Part shown: positions 29,494 to 37,015 of the stretch, piece after piece | How positions within the stretch are numbered: the stretch's first letter is position 1 | How the letters are laid out: each line of letters starts with the position of its first letter | Origin: Candidatus Peregrinibacteria bacterium | GTDB taxonomy: Bacteria; Patescibacteriota; Gracilibacteria; UBA1369 | Length of the DNA stretch: 64,000 bases | Direction of reading: 5' to 3' | NCBI GenBank assembly: GCA_963708185.1 | Contig: OY970195.1 | Coordinates: 544,001-608,000, forward strand | Notes under the pieces: model-generated | Seen by the model: the letters and a program-made list of their open reading frames with translations, nothing else | Databases searched by the model: none | Told to the model about the DNA's origin: nothing | Program-made: the position numbers and the translations under genes

Positions 29494-29517
29494 AAAAAAA
29501 AGAACGCCGAAGCGTTT
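29494..29517 (-). terminator. Intrinsic terminator of cassette A
   Basis: Minus strand AACGC-TTCG-GCGTT followed by C and T8. Confidence 0.65.
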
Positions 29518-29586
29518 GAACTGAGCGCACGGCGCGAAGGCGTAAGCGTGTGGCTTTGCCACCGCTGGAGCGCGTTTAAAAAGAGA

Positions 29587-31089
29587 AAAACTCGCAGAAG
29601 TGTAAATCCCGGTCCGAAGAGGAGGAGGACGACCGCCGGTTTGAAAGGGGGGTCGGGATCACATGGATCCTGCAGTACCGCGTCGAGCGATACCGTTCCT
29701 CCGTCCTCTATCGGACGTGGGAAAGGTTATTCCCCCGCCGCTCTATGAGAGCGGCGGGGTACTGTTGTTGTTAATGGGTGAATGCTGCTTCAAGTCCGAC
29801 GGAATCGATCCGACGGACGAGCAGCGGTTGTTCCTCACTGCACGACGGCTGCGCACGCGATCTGAGACTGGCTGTCTCCGACCGCCTCGTTGTCGATCAA
29901 CGAGTTGTTGTTGGCCGTACCGCGATCGATGAACTCGGACGAGCAGGACCCGGGGAGGCAGTTGCGGAGGTCCGCAGCCGCGTCCTGGAGGCCCTGCAAC
30001 CCAGCCACGTAGCTGAGGTTGTCCGGGTTCTGCCCGTGGTTCGCGGCCAACACGCTCTTCAGCGGGTTGTACCACTCGCACGGGTGATCGCCCGAGCAGG
30101 TGAGGACGTTGTTCGCACCGTACAGGACGGCGCAAACCACGGTCGTCCCGTCAGACGAGCTGACGATGACGGTCTGGCCGGGGGTGAACGAGCCGTCCGT
30201 GGTGAGCGAGGCGTCGACCCAGCCGAGCGTGCTGCTCGACAGGGACGGCTTCCACGTCACGTCCGTGCCACCCGAGCTGTTCGGGACGCAGGTCCCGCTC
30301 GAGCAGTAGTAGCCGCTCGAGCAGGCCGGGGTGCAGCTTCCGCTGCCGTTGGGAACGCACACGCCGTTTTCGCACGTGGTGCCGGATCCGCAGCTGTTGT
30401 TGCAGTTGCCGGAGCCGGAGACGCACTGCCCGTTCGAGCAGTAGGTTCCCGACCCGCAGCTTCCGCCGCAGGTGTCGCTGCCGGACCCGTTGCCGCCGGG
30501 TACGCAGTACCCGTTGTTGCAGATCGTTCCCGTTCCGCAGGTCACGGAACAGGAGCCGGTCGCCGGGCGGCAGGTGGCGGGAGACGAACTGCTGTCGCAG
30601 TACGTGCCCCCATCGCACATGTCGTTGCACGGATCGTTGCCGCTGAACTGGCACTTGTCGGTGAGCGTGTTGCAGACGGCGCCGTCGTGGCAAATGCCGT
30701 CGCATGCCGTGTTGCTTCCGCCGCCCGTACCGCTGCACGCGGGATCGCCGTTCAAACAATACGGTTGGTCGTTGGACGACCCGCCGCAGCCGACGGCCGC
30801 GAGCGCGGTGACGAGGGTGACGAAGATGGCGACACTGAGCTTCAGGTTGGTCTTGGTCATGACTTGTTTCTCCAAACTGGGCTGAGGGCTTTGGGCCCCC
30901 CGAGGAATTTTGGGCTGTAGGGCCCTGGGTAGCACCACCATGGTGCGCCCCCGGTCCCTACTTCCTCGAAAGTTAGGGCCCGAATCCGACTGCTTTGCTG
31001 GCTGCGTCTATCTTCCACAAACGCAAAAACAAACAGGTTCGGACCCTGACTTTCTTGTTGAATAACCATTAAAATCTTCTGCGAGTTTT
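29587..31089. repeat. 14-bp inverted repeat enclosing cassette A
   Basis: AAAACTCGCAGAAG (29587-29600) is the reverse complement of CTTCTGCGAGTTTT (31076-31089). Confidence 0.85.
29835..30860 (-). CDS. Cys-rich repeat lipoprotein, myxobacterial style (cassette A)
   Basis: Lipobox LAAVGC; repeats C..TCG.GT.C.NG.CV; SD GGAGA before ATG. Confidence 0.8.
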   Translation of the reverse strand: MTKTNLKLSVAIFVTLVTALAAVGCGGSSNDQPYCLNGDPACSGTGGGSNTACDGICHDGAVCNTLTDKCQFSGNDPCNDMCDGGTYCDSSSSPATCRPATGSCSVTCGTGTICNNGYCVPGGNGSGSDTCGGSCGSGTYCSNGQCVSGSGNCNNSCGSGTTCENGVCVPNGSGSCTPACSSGYYCSSGTCVPNSSGGTDVTWKPSLSSSTLGWVDASLTTDGSFTPGQTVIVSSSDGTTVVCAVLYGANNVLTCSGDHPCEWYNPLKSVLAANHGQNPDNLSYVAGLQGLQDAAADLRNCLPGSCSSEFIDRGTANNNSLIDNEAVGDSQSQIACAAVVQ

Positions 31090-31176
31090 CAAAGAACTGT
31101 GCTGATGCACCGCTTGCGAAAAGACGCAAAAATACATCAGGTCACGAATGATACTATATTTTTGCTGTTTTGTCAA
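31086..31176 (-). promoter_or_regulatory. sigma70 promoter and boxA-like element of cassette A
   Basis: TTGACA (31176-31171)-N17-TATCAT; GTTCTTTGAAAA at 31097-31086. Confidence 0.75.
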
Positions 31177-31332: not shown

Positions 31333-32196
31333 TTAATGGGTTTCCACGATGCCGTCACTGGGAACGTCAGCGCAGTGGATGGCGACGTCCGTGTCTGCTA
31401 TCGGATCGTTTTCCTGCCAGCTCTGGTTGGAGCCCGCGGCGCGCCAGACAAAAGCGTTCGCCGGGCGGTATTGTTGAGGGGTCGTTCGGTAGCTGATGAG
31501 CTGCCCGGCCGCGTCTTTTGCGGCCTGTTGTGATGTTAAGTATGCCAAATCACCCGGGCTGTGGCCGGTTTGAGCCGCCAGAAAATTCGATTCAACATCC
31601 CACCATTCCCCGCTGCCGTTCATGGTTAAAATCGTGCCGCTGCCGTATCCGACAAAACAGACTGTCGCCGGGGTTTCGGTTTGATGAAACCAGACCGTGT
31701 TTCCCAAAGGGTAATTTGCTCCACCGTTGTTGATGGTCTCTATCCAGCCGTTTCCGGAACCTGCGTGCGCATTCTGCCAGGTGACTCCTGCAAAGGTATC
31801 ATGGGAAACCGGATCACATTTTTTGGTGTCGGGATTGCAGACCGTTCCTTTTCCGCAAAGATTGTCGCAAGGATCGTTGTTAGTGTCGGGAACACAGTGT
31901 TTTGTGGCTTCATCACAGTGTGTTCCACTGCCGCAATTATCACCGCAGACGTTCATTCCGGCATCGGAACCACCGTCTCCCAAGCTGTAAGGACCGTCAT
32001 CGGATCCGCCGCATCCCTGGGAAAGCAGCCCCATGCTGATACCCGCAGCCGCAAGAAATTTAAGTACCGCTCCGCGGGCCTGATGACGTTTTGACGTAAA
32101 GTTTGGCGTCGAAACTCCGCTTGTTGCCGCAGATTCAGGATGAGGGATCGCATCCGGCCGTGAAAAAACCGCTTCAGCCTGTTGTGGGTGAGACAT
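31333..32196 (-). CDS. Cys-rich lipoprotein paralog of cassette A gene, in resident-genome style
   Basis: LLSQGC lipobox, two Cys repeats, C-terminal domain alignable to 29835-30860; no SD. Confidence 0.75.
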   Translation of the reverse strand: MSHPQQAEAVFSRPDAIPHPESAATSGVSTPNFTSKRHQARGAVLKFLAAAGISMGLLSQGCGGSDDGPYSLGDGGSDAGMNVCGDNCGSGTHCDEATKHCVPDTNNDPCDNLCGKGTVCNPDTKKCDPVSHDTFAGVTWQNAHAGSGNGWIETINNGGANYPLGNTVWFHQTETPATVCFVGYGSGTILTMNGSGEWWDVESNFLAAQTGHSPGDLAYLTSQQAAKDAAGQLISYRTTPQQYRPANAFVWRAAGSNQSWQENDPIADTDVAIHCADVPSDGIVETH

Positions 32197-32313
32197 AGGT
32201 TTGGGGGTTAGGGATATGAAAAAAGGGTGTTGTGAACGTGATTGACATATTTCTGAAAACTTTAATGCAAACTCCGGCAGGTTCATTACAAAATACAGGT
32301 TGCATAGATAAGG

Positions 32314-32355
32314 AAAAGGGCCGTCCTCGTAGCTTGTAAGCTTTGAAGACGGCCC
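32314..32355 (-). terminator. Intrinsic terminator of cassette B
   Basis: Minus strand GGGCCGTC...GACGGCCC-TTTT. Confidence 0.65.
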
Positions 32356-32547
32356 CTGATCCTGTTCTGATTGTCTTTGGCCTCCGCATAGCGGGGCTGT
32401 GCACCGTGACCGTGAGGTCTTGGCGCAATCCGGTTCATGAAATATCCATTCTGCCTTACTTTCCGCGAAGGCTTGCGTGCTTCGATGAGAGTCGAAACCG
32501 CTCTTGCCCGAATGCAGTCGGACGCTGTGTGCGAATGTAGGGCCTAC

Positions 32548-34884
32548 TCAGTAGTTGAAGACGAAATAGGCCCAGTTGGACGGACAGTCCGCGCTCACCG
32601 AGAACGATCCGGGGTTGGTCTTGAGAAGGACGTACCCCGTCGTGTAGATCGCTCCGTAGAGATCGGGTTCCAGCTTCGGCGCCGGTCCGGGAGAAGGAGC
32701 CGAAGGAGCGCACTTGAAGTAGACGCTCAACGGCCCCGTTCCCGAAGCGAACGTGAAGTCGACGGTCTGTCCGGGAGTGAGGTTGATTGCGACCCCGACA
32801 TCGTCATTCGGTGAAGTGTTGACGGTGAAGGGGGTGCTCTGGCAGGTAGTGTCGTCCGATGACGAATCTCCGAGGATGACTCCGTAGTGGAGATGAATCA
32901 CCTTGGTACAGGTGCCCGCTTCGATGCAGGTACCCGTGGTAGACGAGCAGGGACCGCCGGCATCGCTGCCGCCGCTTCCTCCCGAACCCGAGCTACCACT
33001 GGAACCGCCGGAACCGCTGGAGCCGGAGCTCCCGCTCGTTCCACCGGAACTGGTACTTCCGGCTGCACCACTGCTTCCGGCAGTGCCTCCGCTTCCGCCG
33101 CTTCCGGCATCTGCAGGAACACACATGTCGGTTGCAATGTCGCAGACCGTACCTGCTCCGCAGGCGCCTCCACAAGGAAGGCCGCCATCAGAGCCGCCCG
33201 CACCACCACTACCGGATGCGCCCCCACTGCCGCCGCTGCCGGCGTCAGATGGGACACACATGTCGGTCATGGTGTCGCAGACGGTGCCAGCTCCGCACTT
33301 TCCGTCACACGGCAAGACGAGGTCGCACAACCCCGTCATCGTGTTACAGACCGTACCGAGACCGCAGTGACCGCCGCAAGGATCTCCCCCGCCGCTGCCA
33401 CTGGACCCCGAACTGCCGCTGGAACCGCTGGAGCCGGAGCTCCCGCTAGATCCAGCACTGCCACTCGTGCCGCCGCTGCCTCCGGATCCGGAGGTGCAGA
33501 CACCCAGGGTGACGTTGCACGTCGTCCCTGGGCCGCATGCGCAGCTGCACGGATCCATGGCCGGGGTGCACGAACCGGCATCGCTGCCGCCCGCGCCTCC
33601 CGTTCCGGATGAACCAGATGAACCGGAAGAGCCGCCGCTGCCGGAGCTTCCCCCGGTGCCGCCGCTGCCTCCAGATCCGCCGGAGATATCGCACAGCCCC
33701 GTCATGGTGTTGCACACCGTGCCGGGGCCGCACTTATTCCCACAGGGATCGGTTCCTCCGCCGGAACCGCCGCTTCCGCCGCCACCCATATCCCGGTAGC
33801 AGTCGTTGTCGACGATTCCGTCGCAGTCGTTGTCGATGTGATCCCCGCACTCCTCCGGGCCCGTAGGCACGCAGATGCAGAGCGGAAGACCGTCATCAAC
33901 CTTGTTGTTGCAGTCGTTGTCGCGACCGTCGCAGACTTCGGGCATGGGCGAGCCCGGGATTGCGTCGCAACGGGTTGCCCAGGGCCCGTCGCAGATCACC
34001 TTGCCGAAGGCAAGGCAATCCCCAACGCCGAGAGTGCAGGGAAGGTTCGTCCCCCAGCCCTCGTCGATGAGGCTGTTGCCGTTGTTGTCGATACCGTCAC
34101 ATTTCTCGGCAACACAGAGCTTCGTGACGGGGTTGCAGACGGTGGTGCTTCCACAGACGCCGCCGCAGGGATCGCTCCCCGAGTCGCCGCCGCTTCCGCT
34201 GTCACCGCCAGTTCCGGAGTCGCCCCCGGTGCCGGCGTCGGACCCGCCCGTTCCTCCATCGCTGGATTCACAGGTGCAGGTCGACGTGTTGCAGTGGGTT
34301 CCCTGGCCGCAGTGGTTGTTGCAGTTGTTGCAACTCCCGCCGTCGGTGTTGGGAACACACTGTCCGTTGAGGCAGGTCGTGCCGGAGCCACAGTGGCCCC
34401 CGCAGTCCCCGCCGCCGTCTCCGCCCGGTACGCATTGCTTTGTATCCGGGTCGCAGACGGTAAGGGGTGGAGCGCAATGCCCTTTGCAGGGATCGCCTCC
34501 GCCGCCGGTCTCGCACTTGCCAGTATCCACGTTGCACGTGGTCCCGGAGGCGCAATGACCGCCGCACGGATCTCCACCACCCGCGACGCACTTGTCGGTC
34601 GCGACGTCGCAGGTGGTTCCGGGAGCGCATTTGCCGTTACAGGGATTGCTCCCCGGCGGCAAACACTTTCCGGTGTTTTGATCGCAGACGGTTCCGGGGC
34701 CACACGTGCCCTCGCAAACGTCCACGCCGCCCTCTCCGGTTCCGGAGCTTCCTCCGGTTCCGGGAGGGCATTGCCCGTTGAGGCAGAAGGGATGGTCTCC
34801 CTCGCTGCTGCATCCCACCGCGATAGCGATGGGGGCGAACAGTGAGAGTACCACCCACTTCCACCGCCTACGCGGTGAATACAT
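32548..34884 (-). CDS. Large Cys/Gly-rich repeat lipoprotein with MopE-related metal-binding repeats (cassette B)
   Basis: IAVGC lipobox; many DPC.G.C..GT.C repeats; EKCDGIDNNGNSLIDEG, EVCDGRDNDCNNKVDDG; GGSSG and DAG linkers; SD GGAGA before ATG 34884. Confidence 0.82.
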   Translation of the reverse strand: MYSPRRRWKWVVLSLFAPIAIAVGCSSEGDHPFCLNGQCPPGTGGSSGTGEGGVDVCEGTCGPGTVCDQNTGKCLPPGSNPCNGKCAPGTTCDVATDKCVAGGGDPCGGHCASGTTCNVDTGKCETGGGGDPCKGHCAPPLTVCDPDTKQCVPGGDGGGDCGGHCGSGTTCLNGQCVPNTDGGSCNNCNNHCGQGTHCNTSTCTCESSDGGTGGSDAGTGGDSGTGGDSGSGGDSGSDPCGGVCGSTTVCNPVTKLCVAEKCDGIDNNGNSLIDEGWGTNLPCTLGVGDCLAFGKVICDGPWATRCDAIPGSPMPEVCDGRDNDCNNKVDDGLPLCICVPTGPEECGDHIDNDCDGIVDNDCYRDMGGGGSGGSGGGTDPCGNKCGPGTVCNTMTGLCDISGGSGGSGGTGGSSGSGGSSGSSGSSGTGGAGGSDAGSCTPAMDPCSCACGPGTTCNVTLGVCTSGSGGSGGTSGSAGSSGSSGSSGSSGSSGSSGSGGGDPCGGHCGLGTVCNTMTGLCDLVLPCDGKCGAGTVCDTMTDMCVPSDAGSGGSGGASGSGGAGGSDGGLPCGGACGAGTVCDIATDMCVPADAGSGGSGGTAGSSGAAGSTSSGGTSGSSGSSGSGGSSGSSGSGGSGGSDAGGPCSSTTGTCIEAGTCTKVIHLHYGVILGDSSSDDTTCQSTPFTVNTSPNDDVGVAINLTPGQTVDFTFASGTGPLSVYFKCAPSAPSPGPAPKLEPDLYGAIYTTGYVLLKTNPGSFSVSADCPSNWAYFVFNY

Positions 34885-35136
34885 CGTTTTCTCCATGTGC
34901 CGGTCGTCACCGGCGTCGAAATTCCTCCGCAGGTGCGATCGTCATCGCAGCGGATTCACACTTTGCGCCGACCGTATTGTCTGGCGCGATGTTCTTGTTG
35001 GTAAACGATCGCGCCATAGTCGGCGACGTTGGTTGAGGTTGAGGTTTTGCATTCCCCGCGGGTGACGGATGTCGAATCCGTAAACCCGCGGGGTGCGCGA
35101 GGTGCCGTCTCAATTCCTTGCGGAAGAGCCGGCGGA

Positions 35137-36276
35137 TCAGAAACGGGCCCCGAGCGTACCGTGGGCATCGATGGCAGCGGCGTAGACGTTCTTGTCGCCG
35201 CCGTCGATGTGGTAGGACTGCATGAACGGCAACTGGGGAGAAGTCCCCAGCCCGAGGTAGACGCCGCGCCTCTCGTCTCCCGTCAACATGAAGTTGACGC
35301 CGAGATTGAGCGCGAGGCCGCCCTCGATGTCGTTCTTGGCGTGGTTGTTCCAGACCGTACCATCGGCCGCCTGGCCGATGTTGGTGTCGGGAACGTGAAT
35401 CCAGCGCATGAACGGGCCACCACCCAGGACGACGTCCACGCGGCTCCCCACCGGGATGCCCGCCTGGAACATGACGCCCCACCAGGTGATGTCCTGCCAC
35501 ACGCTGGGCTCGGTGAGCGGAACGCCCACCACGCCGCGGTTGTCGATGCGGCCGCGGGCATACCCCGCGAACGCTGCAACCTCGAAGGCCGTCTCGTTCA
35601 CCGGACCCACGTGGTACGTGAACTGTCCCTGCACGCCTCCCGCGACATCGAAGCCGCCGGTACGGAAGTACGCCATCGGCTCGAGGTCGAGCCTGGTGCG
35701 TCCGTCCGAACCGAAATGGGCACCCAAAGGCTCGTACCTCGAGTCGGATTCCGGCCTGGTGTAGGAGTCGCCGATGTTGGCCTTGCCGACGAGATCGCTC
35801 TTGTCGGCCTTGCCGTCGAGCTTGCCGTTGACCGCGTCGATGGCCGGCTGTTCCACGAGCTTGTCCTTGCCGTAGACCATCACGGTGAAGGTAGCACCGC
35901 TACCGTCCGTGAAGGTCAGCGTCTTGGACGCACCCGGGTCGACCGCCACCTCGCCCTCGAACTCCGCGAACGCGGAGACGAGGACGACAGTGGTGCCGCT
36001 CTTCGTTTCCGACACCTCGGGCTTCGTCAGCGGAGCCGGGAAATCAGAAGAAGTGACCTTCCCCTGGGTCCCGTTCTTGCAGTACAGGCGAATCCGAAGA
36101 CTCGCCGAACCGCGGACCACCACACCGGAGGTGTTGGTGGTGCCGACGTAGTCCTGGATGCCGTCCTTGAAGATGAGCGGCTGCCGACAATCGGCAGCGA
36201 ACGCGGTCTTGCCCACCACGATGGTGGCGAGCGCGAACACCAACCCGACGAACCCTTTCATGAGCTTGTGAGACAT
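35137..36276 (-). CDS. Secreted protein with putative outer-membrane beta-barrel C-terminal domain (cassette B)
   Basis: Signal peptide ending AFA; alternating hydrophobic strands; ends HGTLGARF; SD-like AAGGTG. Confidence 0.7.
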   Translation of the reverse strand: MSHKLMKGFVGLVFALATIVVGKTAFAADCRQPLIFKDGIQDYVGTTNTSGVVVRGSASLRIRLYCKNGTQGKVTSSDFPAPLTKPEVSETKSGTTVVLVSAFAEFEGEVAVDPGASKTLTFTDGSGATFTVMVYGKDKLVEQPAIDAVNGKLDGKADKSDLVGKANIGDSYTRPESDSRYEPLGAHFGSDGRTRLDLEPMAYFRTGGFDVAGGVQGQFTYHVGPVNETAFEVAAFAGYARGRIDNRGVVGVPLTEPSVWQDITWWGVMFQAGIPVGSRVDVVLGGGPFMRWIHVPDTNIGQAADGTVWNNHAKNDIEGGLALNLGVNFMLTGDERRGVYLGLGTSPQLPFMQSYHIDGGDKNVYAAAIDAHGTLGARF

Positions 36277-36289
36277 GTTTTTCACCTTT

Positions 36290-36980
36290 CATCTGACTGT
36301 TGAACTCTTGTGTCCGAGCCGCGCTATGGGAGCAACGAACCGGACGAACCTATGATACTCCGCCTTATGGGCGGTGGCCGCCTACGGCCCAACTTTTCCT
36401 TTGAATCGTAAGGCCGATACGGCCTAAACCGCCCGCCACCACAGCGGAGCGGTTCGCCCTTAGTGCATGTAACTACCCTTTCGGGGCTGCATGCACATAG
36501 GGCCGAGGCGGTGGTGTGGGCGCCTCTTGCGGAAGCGCTTCATACTACCTTTTCCTTTCCTCTACCCTCTTGCTCTTACCTTAACTCACCGAAGTGTGAG
36601 TATGTCGGCGAACTCGAGAGCTCATAACTACTCTCCAGGGCTGGGCCCTATTAAGCAGACCCGTCAAACGGACCTGCAGAAAAGCAGCTTTGAGCTCTCG
36701 AGTCACCAAAAAAATTTTAGAATGTTTTGTACACACGAACTTGCGTTGGCCCGCTCTTAAGGAGCTAGCACACTCGCTTCTTCGTGTTTCATGAACCGGA
36801 TTTTCAAAGATCCATCAGTACAGGAAGCCCAAACAAACAATTTCGTTCTGTTTGAGCTTGTAAAAGACACTTAAAATCGAGCCCTTCCAGCCTTTTCCTT
36901 TGCCGGAATCAGTAGCCCGATGTTCAATTTGTGTCTTTTATAAGCCCAAAAGAGTTGAGGGGTAGGTAAATTTTTAAAGG
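36290..36980 (-). ncRNA. Long structured 5' leader RNA of cassette B
   Basis: About 700 nt between promoter and first ATG with many stems, e.g. ACTCGAGAGCTCA/TGAGCTCTCGAGT (36612-36624/36691-36703). Confidence 0.55.
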
Positions 36981-37015
36981 AAGTAATTATAACCACAAAA
37001 GTCTATTTTTGTCAA
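36801..37015 (-). promoter_or_regulatory. sigma70 promoter and boxA-like element of cassette B
   Basis: TTGACA (37015-37010)-N18-TATAAT (36991-36986); GATCTTTGAAAA at 36812-36801. Confidence 0.75.

Follow-up and report, generated by a model that had tools for sequence, protein, structure and literature searches.

A long-range complementarity adjoining boxA encloses a two-gene cassette in a Candidatus Peregrinibacteria genome and resembles the leader-trailer design of rRNA operons

The subject of this analysis is a 64,000-nucleotide (nt) stretch of the genome of a small, uncultivated Candidatus Peregrinibacteria bacterium (GenBank assembly GCA_963708185.1, contig OY970195.1), hereafter the window, and within it a two-gene operon, cassette B, whose predicted transcript carries two exactly complementary 16-nt arms, one adjoining a boxA-like element in the leader and the other lying beyond the last stop codon. 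The genome (G000) is a single contig of 1,437,033 base pairs (bp) with a GC content of 49.8%, in which cassette B lies at ~576-581 kb; this operon and a second one of comparable layout, cassette A, are both encoded on the minus strand of the window. Coordinates of the two cassettes are window positions, and those of the 16S and 23S rRNA genes, nusB, rnc and the sites 388018 and 965078 are positions in the genome. Read in the direction of transcription, cassette B presents a promoter, hairpin, boxA, 5' arm, leader, genes, 3' arm and terminator, in that order (aa, amino acids; ORF, open reading frame; GC3, third-codon-position GC):

37015..36986, minus strand: promoter TTGACA-18 nt-TATAAT, matching the consensus at 12/12 positions and conserved in four congeners (G001-G004)
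36945..36856, minus strand: leader hairpin in the position of a boxB, with a 15-bp stem (GCTTATAAAAGACAC / GTGTCTTTTACAAGC) and a variable insert, recognised by complementarity in the sequence
36812..36801, minus strand: boxA-like element GATCTTTGAAAA, by sequence match
36802..36787, minus strand: 5' arm AATCCGGTTCATGAAA, overlapping the last 2 nt of boxA and exactly complementary to the 3' arm
36786..36277, minus strand: structured, conserved untranslated leader of ~510 nt, from alignment with relatives
36276..35137, minus strand: gene 1, an ORF of 379 aa with a signal peptide, GC3 0.86
34896..32548, minus strand: gene 2, an ORF of 782 aa, lipoprotein-like, with the lipobox AVGC, Cys-rich repeats and Gly/Ser linkers
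32442..32427, minus strand: 3' arm, RNA strand TTTCATGAACCGGATT, the exact complement, 106 nt past the stop codon and 72 nt before the terminator
32396..32381, minus strand: small hairpin between the 3' arm and the terminator, CCYCGC-loop-GCGRGG in four genomes
32355..32310, minus strand: intrinsic terminator GGGCCGTC...GACGGCCC followed by UUUUCC, read from the sequence and absent from the list of the consensus scan

On the plus strand, 32427-32442 reads AATCCGGTTCATGAAA and 36787-36802 is its exact reverse complement, while the leader on the minus strand from 36812 to 36787 is GATCTTTGAAAATCCGGTTCATGAAA, just as a preliminary description of this DNA had given it. Direct reading of the sequence likewise bears out the claims made there of a perfect 16-bp inverted repeat that starts at boxA and spans 4.4 kb, and of a 3' arm placed between the final stop codon (32548) and a terminator, whose hairpin and U-run occupy 32355..32310. 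The arms enclose ~4.4 kb with both genes, and they lie in untranslated RNA, so that ribosomes would not cross them. The inverted match ends after exactly 16 nt in both directions, neither arm has a second copy in the 1,437,033-bp genome, and the bases flanking the arms differ (GCGC versus GAAA), leaving no direct repeat.

As a bare inverted repeat, a match of this size is unremarkable and within chance expectation. The window holds three exact inverted pairs of at least 16 nt, one of which is of low complexity and another a local palindrome; 60 third-order Markov simulations of the window gave on average 1.27 such pairs anywhere and 0.32 within 10 kb, and the whole genome has 32 within 10 kb. 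These simulations make such pairs unexceptional, so the argument from plain inverted-repeat statistics was rejected, and the earlier assertion that an exact 16-mer is unlikely by chance stands only when its position next to boxA is given. For a test conditioned on position, the complement of the 40 nt after a given site was sought within 12 kb downstream. Random positions yielded a complement of at least 14 nt at 11/2000 and of at least 16 nt at 1/2000; the genome contains 19 exact TCTTTGAAAA sites, and a complement of at least 14 nt was present at only two of them, those of cassettes A and B. The repeat is rare once its place beside boxA is taken into account, and it is this context, not the repeat itself, that gives the 16-mer its significance.

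Comparison with related genomes shows that both arms have been retained. Searching 41 genomes (G000 and 40 relatives) at the DNA level recovered the cassette B operon in four other genomes of the genus: in G002, G003 and G004 the placement of the two genes and of both arms is unchanged, the 3' arm following 92-112 nt past the stop codon, and G001 keeps the 5' arm, its contig ending just after it. The gene 1 proteins of the congeners are only 29-35% identical to that of G000, which means that neutral sequence should be saturated; the arms are nevertheless 88-90% identical between genomes, versus 19-34% for the adjacent 30 nt. Moreover, the substitutions within the arms are largely of the kind that preserves pairing. 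G000 has C-G at helix position 4, where G002, G003 and G004 have U-A; at position 6, G000 shares G-C with G004, and both G002 and G003 have A-U; G004 has U.G at position 5; and the pair that extends the helix at its inner end is C.A, U.G, G-C or U-A across the four genomes. In register, 66 of 72 cells are paired; shifting the partner strand by 1-3 nt lowers this number to 16-37. Consensus duplex folding gave helices of 14-18 bp and no conserved extension beyond the core, and a minimum-free-energy (MFE) fold of the whole predicted transcript (4670 nt) kept 15/16 of the helix pairs. The boxB-like hairpin upstream behaves similarly, both strands of its stem being kept in five genomes while the insert varies.

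Beyond these genomes the operon is scarce in the data searched. Genome contigs contained no relatives of gene 1 beyond those of the three known congeners, and 483 pattern matches in metagenome contigs led to 0 further ones. A DNA pattern combining boxA with the conserved half of the arm hit seven metagenome stretches, all in other contexts and none with a 3' arm. One DNA sequencing run (X1) matched the locus, with 0.11 of the words, through five short contig pieces within the genes, which cover neither arm and for which no joints are reported.

The same arrangement recurs in cassette A, which encodes a single protein:

31176..31148, minus strand: promoter TTGACA-17 nt-TATCAT, from the consensus scan
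31129..31114, minus strand: small hairpin TTGCG-TCTTTT-CGCAA upstream of boxA, read from the sequence and kept in relatives
31097..31086, minus strand: boxA GTTCTTTGAAAA, overlapping the 5' arm
31089..31076, minus strand: 5' arm AAAACTCGCAGAAG, a 14-nt complement of the 3' arm
30860..29835, minus strand: ORF for a 341-aa Cys-rich, lipoprotein-like protein, GC3 0.89, without a Pfam match
29600..29587, minus strand: 3' arm CTTCTGCGAGTTTT, the complement
29516..29495, minus strand: terminator AACGCTTCGGCGTT followed by a U-run, from the consensus scan

Its helix measures 13-16 nt in four genomes of the genus, pairing occupies 76 of 85 cells in register and 37-45 when slid, and the MFE fold of the whole predicted transcript (1642 nt) kept 14/14 of the helix pairs. 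A syntenic cassette A is also present in a genome of another genus, G023 (locus L066), where a small lipoprotein gene is convergent with a pfkB-type kinase gene as it is in the window; the arm there, GAAAAGTCGCATTAG, differs from that of G000 by three substitutions, each of which is compensated in the 3' arm. As a separate observation on this cassette, its 3' untranslated region (UTR) contains, upstream of the 3' arm at 29640-29660 (minus strand), a CCUCCUCCUC run that is like the anti-Shine-Dalgarno end of 16S rRNA and is conserved in G000, G002, G003 and G004. To judge by its letters, this run could pair with a Shine-Dalgarno sequence once the helix joins the two UTRs.

A third unit lies elsewhere in the genome and completes the set of protein-coding cases:

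387930-388420 of G000, plus strand (locus L095): promoter, GATCTTTGAAAA, helix, ORF and terminator (the 388018 unit)

Its helix is of 17 bp with two tandem G.U pairs, and its cargo is an ORF for a small hydrophobic protein of 48 aa. The G004 counterpart has Watson-Crick pairs at both wobble positions and one G-C to A-U compensation, around a larger cargo consisting of the gene for that small hydrophobic protein and a gene for a 119-aa Cys-rich lipoprotein; that of G002 forms 9+7 bp with one A.C mismatch. Read from the opposite strand, the two adjacent G.U pairs would turn into A.C mismatches, which argues for pairing of the sense RNA, and this unit is the only one with a clear sense-strand wobble signal. 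Taken over the three helices, base-pair changes on both sides affect six pairs (~2 in cassette B, three in cassette A and one in the third unit), in addition to wobble-to-Watson-Crick changes. The three units share the design, and their arm sequences are unrelated.

The rRNA genes of G000 itself follow this plan. The 16S gene (372254-373755) and the 23S gene (377947-381062), both present once, are separated by 4.2 kb that include apparent protein-coding sequence, and each has its own promoter, hairpin and boxA, GTTCTTTAACA, which is a perfect match to the published GYTCTTTAANA (PMC5725501). The leader-trailer duplex begins inside boxA in both, and comprises about 50 predicted pairs for 16S and about 74 for 23S. 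Five units of the genome, two for rRNA and three protein-coding, therefore have a common layout, and in all five the 3' end of the motif already belongs to the helix, as it does in units of G010, G011 and G023, which belong to other genera. A search for factors that covered NusB, RNase III and Rho found nusB (PF01029) at 667595-667969 and, adjacent to it, the RNase III gene rnc (PF14622) at 667052-667441. Rho was not found in the genome with PF07497 or TIGR00767, the latter giving only sub-threshold paralogs.

As RNA, the boxA-like element of cassette B reads GAUCUUUGAAAA and that of cassette A GUUCUUUGAAAA. Their core, GAUCUUUGAAA, is the core of the boxA-like consensus of Bacillus subtilis rrn operons, AUGAUCUUUGAAA, a likeness by sequence alone; the consensus from those rRNA operons is reported to bind NusB, by nuclear magnetic resonance (PMC13753749). 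Against the gamma-proteobacterial GYTCTTTAANA (PMC5725501), cassette A has one mismatch and cassette B two. The motif is invariant across genomes whose flanks are unalignable, and the very 12-mer of cassette B, GATCTTTGAAAA, also precedes the 23S leader-trailer helix of a family member, G010.

A scan of 31 genomes of the family located GDTCTTTGAAAA at 76 places, of which 65 in other genera were examined, 10 in G000 and G002 were handled separately and one at a contig end was left out; exact complements were used, and helices with G.U pairs are thus undercounted. An exact complement of at least 15 nt starting 7-10 nt into the motif was present at 3/65 sites, where ~0.07 would be expected from the random-position rate. 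The G010 site encloses a 23S rRNA gene with group I introns and serves as a positive control, the G011 site encloses a single gene for a putative Na+/H+ antiporter (PF07399), and the third is the cassette A ortholog of G023. A search for PF07399 in G000 gave no match, but there was none in any control genome either, so that this result is uninformative. The G010 locus (L033, contig C95) has further peculiarities: two Rfam group I intron matches in the 23S gene, two boxA-like elements in the leader, and ~2 kb with LAGLIDADG-like ORFs between the Rfam end of 23S and the trailer arm. Within G000, one further copy of GATCTTTGAAAA, at 965078 (minus strand, locus L097), stands in the leader of a gene for a 1494-aa secreted protein, with no detectable leader-trailer helix, and its context is conserved in G002 (L093). 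Rfam gave no matches at the loci of the other boxA-like sites. An energy scan with RNAduplex after boxA-like sites proved non-discriminating: the random median of -31 kcal/mol was better than the -27 to -30 kcal/mol of the real units, which score worse because their arms are A/U-rich, and the scan was useful only for spotting the G.U-containing helix at 388018.

Given the order of these elements, a helix that is conserved and covaries, the two parallel units, the design of the genome's own rRNA genes and the presence of nusB and rnc, we consider it probable that the entire transcript of cassette B is closed into a loop by an RNA helix, with the 5' arm as its leader strand and the 3' arm as its trailer strand, and that the Nus/boxA design of the cassette was copied from rRNA operons. 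The preliminary description had favoured an RNA-level stem, and the covariation, the parallel units, the rRNA layout and the folding uphold that preference, as comparative support rather than direct demonstration. We infer a course of events along the following lines. Transcription would start at the consensus promoter, and the hairpin and then boxA would emerge on the nascent RNA; NusB and NusE (S10) would bind boxA and, together with NusA and NusG, turn RNA polymerase into an antitermination complex of the rRNA type. This complex would elongate fast through the ~700-nt untranslated leader and the GC-rich genes with boxA tethered at the RNA exit, and the 5' arm, tethered along with the adjoining boxA, would pair with the 3' arm as the latter emerges after the last stop codon. 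The published rRNA model is of the same form, with NusB/S10 on boxA remaining attached to the polymerase and the leader strand held at the RNA exit until the trailer pairs with it (PMC10250234; preprint 10.64898/2026.03.17.712431). Because the helix would invade the 3' end of boxA, we further posit that it may release the Nus factors ~70 nt before the intrinsic terminator, and the paired ends may be a substrate for RNase III, may shield the ends of the mRNA from decay, or both.

A more far-reaching version, which we put forward tentatively and regard as rather doubtful, is that a set of mRNAs in this group of small-genome bacteria is made by the rRNA pathway as such: Nus factors loaded at boxA would keep the 5' end at the polymerase during transcription of the operon, which would be uncoupled from translation, the helix would strip off Nus by invading boxA and re-arm termination, and RNase III would trim the product to a GC-rich mRNA with double-stranded ends that encodes secreted or lipoprotein-like proteins. 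This would then be the first natural instance of co-transcriptional 5'-3' looping used to build and process whole protein-coding operons.

Several observations weigh against the proposed Nus-linked leader-trailer helix. Each helix is represented in only four to five related genomes, so that the six compensated pairs amount to few independent events; covariation by itself does not separate an RNA helix from a DNA inverted repeat; and the wobble count in cassettes A and B, 4 G.U versus 5 A.C cells that are mostly at helix ends, carries no strand signal. The helices, at 14-18 bp, are short beside the 25-40 bp given for Enterobacteriaceae in PMC10250234, and also beside the rRNA duplexes of G000 itself, a length that may be marginal for RNase III. 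With Rho not found, boxA cannot owe its presence here to its classical anti-Rho role. The motif GDTCTTTGAAAA is no commoner in the family genomes than its reversed control, most of its copies being attributable to chance, and three of its six copies in G000 (965078, 1431169 and 1241581) are without a credible helix. No RNA run is listed as containing the cassette B locus sequence.

Some of these points would be accommodated by a helix that is real and selected yet unconnected to Nus, in which the A/U-rich motif would be a spacer or some other site, such as one for an RNase or for ribosome standby, and the helix alone would set stability or RNase III processing. We think this improbable, though the least so of the alternatives. 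The lack of motif enrichment, the boxA-like leader at 965078 that has no helix, and the failure to find Rho, the usual target of boxA antitermination, all fit it, and pairings between 5' and 3' UTRs that operate without Nus are documented for icaR and hbs (PMC3868564, PMC5737220). What it leaves unexplained is that pairing begins inside the 3' end of the motif in 5/5 units of G000 and again in G010, G011 and G023, that the motif is invariant where its flanks are unalignable, and that it is the sequence reported to bind NusB in B. subtilis (PMC13753749).

A role at the level of DNA, with the arms acting as crossover sites of an invertible segment (an on/off switch that sets the genes sense or antisense to the fixed promoter), as sites for a DNA-looping protein or as the termini of an old, more GC-rich mobile cassette, strikes us as slightly less probable still. 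The arms bracket a segment of odd composition, ~65% GC as compared with 49.8% for the genome, inverted DNA repeats would yield the same "compensatory" pattern, the wobble count of cassettes A and B favours neither strand, and invertons and the terminal repeats of mobile elements likewise consist of short inverted repeats around a few kb of deviant composition. The cassettes differ from such elements in several respects, however. Orientation relative to the promoter and boxA is the same at 4/4 cassette B and 5/5 cassette A loci, hence one orientation in the 9/9 assembled loci, and synteny holds across deeply diverged genomes. The preliminary description had noted no transposase or recombinase nearby, and for recombinases of the resolvase and integrase types this holds over a wider range than the window: resolvase-type genes (PF00239) lie at 722 kb and 1380 kb and integrase-type genes (PF00589) at 1024 kb and 1414 kb, none within the window and the nearest more than 140 kb off, and no transposase family was detected by Pfam among the genes that the arms enclose or adjoin. 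Each arm is a single-copy sequence whose match does not extend and whose flanks show neither direct repeats nor a target-site duplication. Furthermore, the arms of the three units are unrelated, so that no single protein could recognise all of them, the tandem mid-helix G.U pairs of the third unit would be imperfections in a DNA repeat, with A.C on the opposite strand, and where rRNA genes carry this design it is an established RNA helix. As for a functionless chance repeat, the simulated 0.32 pairs within 10 kb and 1.27 anywhere and the 32 genomic pairs, most of them without obvious meaning, might have suggested one, but this is very improbable indeed: the arms are conserved with compensation while the proteins are ~30% identical and the flanks are at random-level identity, cassette A, the third unit and the rRNA genes repeat the design, and conservation as read from the aligned sequences would exclude pure chance.

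Returning to the proposed leader-trailer helix with its Nus connection, the closest known system is the rRNA leader (boxB-boxA-boxC) with its leader-trailer helix, rrnTAC (Warner et al. 2023, PMC10250234; Chaban et al. 2026, preprint 10.64898/2026.03.17.712431). The cassettes are like it in having a strong promoter, a hairpin, boxA and a long-range helix around the cargo, in the support of that helix by covariation, in the presence of nusB and rnc genes and in the corresponding layout of the host's own 16S and 23S genes. They differ in that their cargo is protein-coding, consisting of one or two genes of 48 to 782 aa with no rRNA or Rfam family inside, in the shorter helix, and in a host in which the Rho gene was not found. 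In Enterobacteriaceae, moreover, boxC lies 18-19 nt downstream of boxA, whereas the 5' strand of the cassettes overlaps boxA. A second point of comparison is boxA in the 5' UTRs of genes other than rRNA, namely suhB and other gamma-proteobacterial genes (PMC5725501) and CRISPR arrays (PMC13753749), where it likewise presumably recruits Nus. The consulted parts of those reports describe no leader-trailer helix around the unit, and the effect at suhB is translational repression followed by Rho termination; unlike these cases, boxA in the cassettes is separated from the start codon by 215-520 nt and stands next to a helix spanning the operon. Third, pairing of a 3' UTR with the 5' UTR of its own mRNA is known from icaR of Staphylococcus aureus (PMC3868564) and from hbs of B. 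subtilis (PMC5737220), with RNases involved, RNase III for icaR. In icaR the 3' UTR is reported to pair with the Shine-Dalgarno region and to block translation, whereas the cassette arms are far from any Shine-Dalgarno sequence, the start codon coming ~510 nt after the 5' arm in B and 215 nt after it in A; they also adjoin boxA, enclose as much as 4.4 kb with two genes, and are a design found on several units, unlike the icaR and hbs pairings.

The literature searched yielded no description of a leader-trailer helix adjoining boxA around protein-coding genes. For rRNA, leader-trailer helices are on record from all phyla; a term search of PMC11404451 met no mention of boxA or of protein-coding cargo. 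The Nus/boxA complex and leader-trailer helices are treated as machinery of ribosome biogenesis; outside rRNA, boxA is known only as a local regulator, and only scattered examples of pairing between 5' and 3' UTRs are known. In the present units, which measure 0.35 to 4.4 kb, the rRNA design in its complete form surrounds protein-coding sequence, with helices maintained by compensatory evolution, and the cargo consists of secreted, lipoprotein-like or small hydrophobic proteins, with one antiporter unit in a related genome. This suggests that in this bacterium whole mRNAs are made, folded and perhaps trimmed like rRNA. If the helices form in vivo, polymerase-tethered looping would not be specific to rRNA, a matter that the single-molecule preprint on the rRNA antitermination complex explicitly leaves open (10.64898/2026.03.17.712431). 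The cassettes would in that case also offer a natural test bed for the release of the Nus complex ahead of terminators and would suggest how small-genome bacteria stabilise abundant mRNAs. The combination of boxA with an adjoining long-range complement is, furthermore, a signature that can be searched for in other genomes.

The genes enclosed by cassette B are themselves unusual. Gene 1 has no Pfam match, and gene 2 only a weak match to PF11617, under the curated cut-off. The predicted structure of the gene 1 protein comprises an N-terminal beta domain and a C-terminal eight-stranded beta-barrel like those of OmpX and OmpA, with a mean predicted local distance difference test (pLDDT) score of 61.8 and values mostly of 60-86 in the C-terminal half. 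Its C-terminal domain, built of long antiparallel strands, matched OmpX, the transmembrane domain of OmpA, NspA and OmpW in Foldseek with E-values of about 1e-5 and target template-modelling (TM) scores of 0.5-0.63, and the protein ends in Phe. A search of protein clusters gave sub-threshold leads only (0.86-0.87), to beta-barrel clusters, with which the fold search agrees. This lineage is generally regarded as being without an outer membrane, and a barrel fold in gene 1 would then be unexpected.

The leader of cassette B contains further conserved structure over ~300-500 nt. A long hairpin at 36703..36612 (minus strand) shows a compensatory C-G to U-A change in G004, and the region 36786-36290 (minus strand) also includes a GNRA-capped hairpin with covariation and two further blocks that are invariant in four genomes. 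Rfam searches at gathering thresholds or at E-values up to 5 gave no matches in the leader and the cassettes, and nhmmer found no second copy of the leader in G000 or in the loci of relatives that were examined; to go by its sequence conservation, the leader could be a new cis-regulatory RNA. Within it, at 36543..36460 (minus strand), a 27-codon ORF beginning MKRFRKRRPHHRLGP... follows a Shine-Dalgarno sequence, GAGGAAAGGA. This ORF is found in G000, G003 and G004 and deleted in G002, and as it overlaps the covarying hairpins, its conservation may be coding or structural.

Between cassettes B and A of G000 stands a 317-aa ORF (31333-32286, minus strand) without a Pfam match, and in G002, G003 and G004 cassette A comes directly after cassette B. 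The cassette genes also differ from their surroundings in codon composition, their GC3 being 0.72-0.89 versus 0.53-0.66 in neighbours that include the genes for L19 and trigger factor; units in other genera likewise exceed the GC content of their surroundings by 15-16 points, and the bias persists across deeply diverged genomes. Lastly, a GC-rich element of ~70 nt, GCGCTCCAGCGGTGGCAAAGCCACACGCTTACGCC..., occurs at transcript ends, at 29511-29586 of the window and at about 373950-374010 and about 965150-965210 of G000; its sites include the 16S trailer, it appears in either orientation, and in G004, G002 and G001 it is present in multiple copies.

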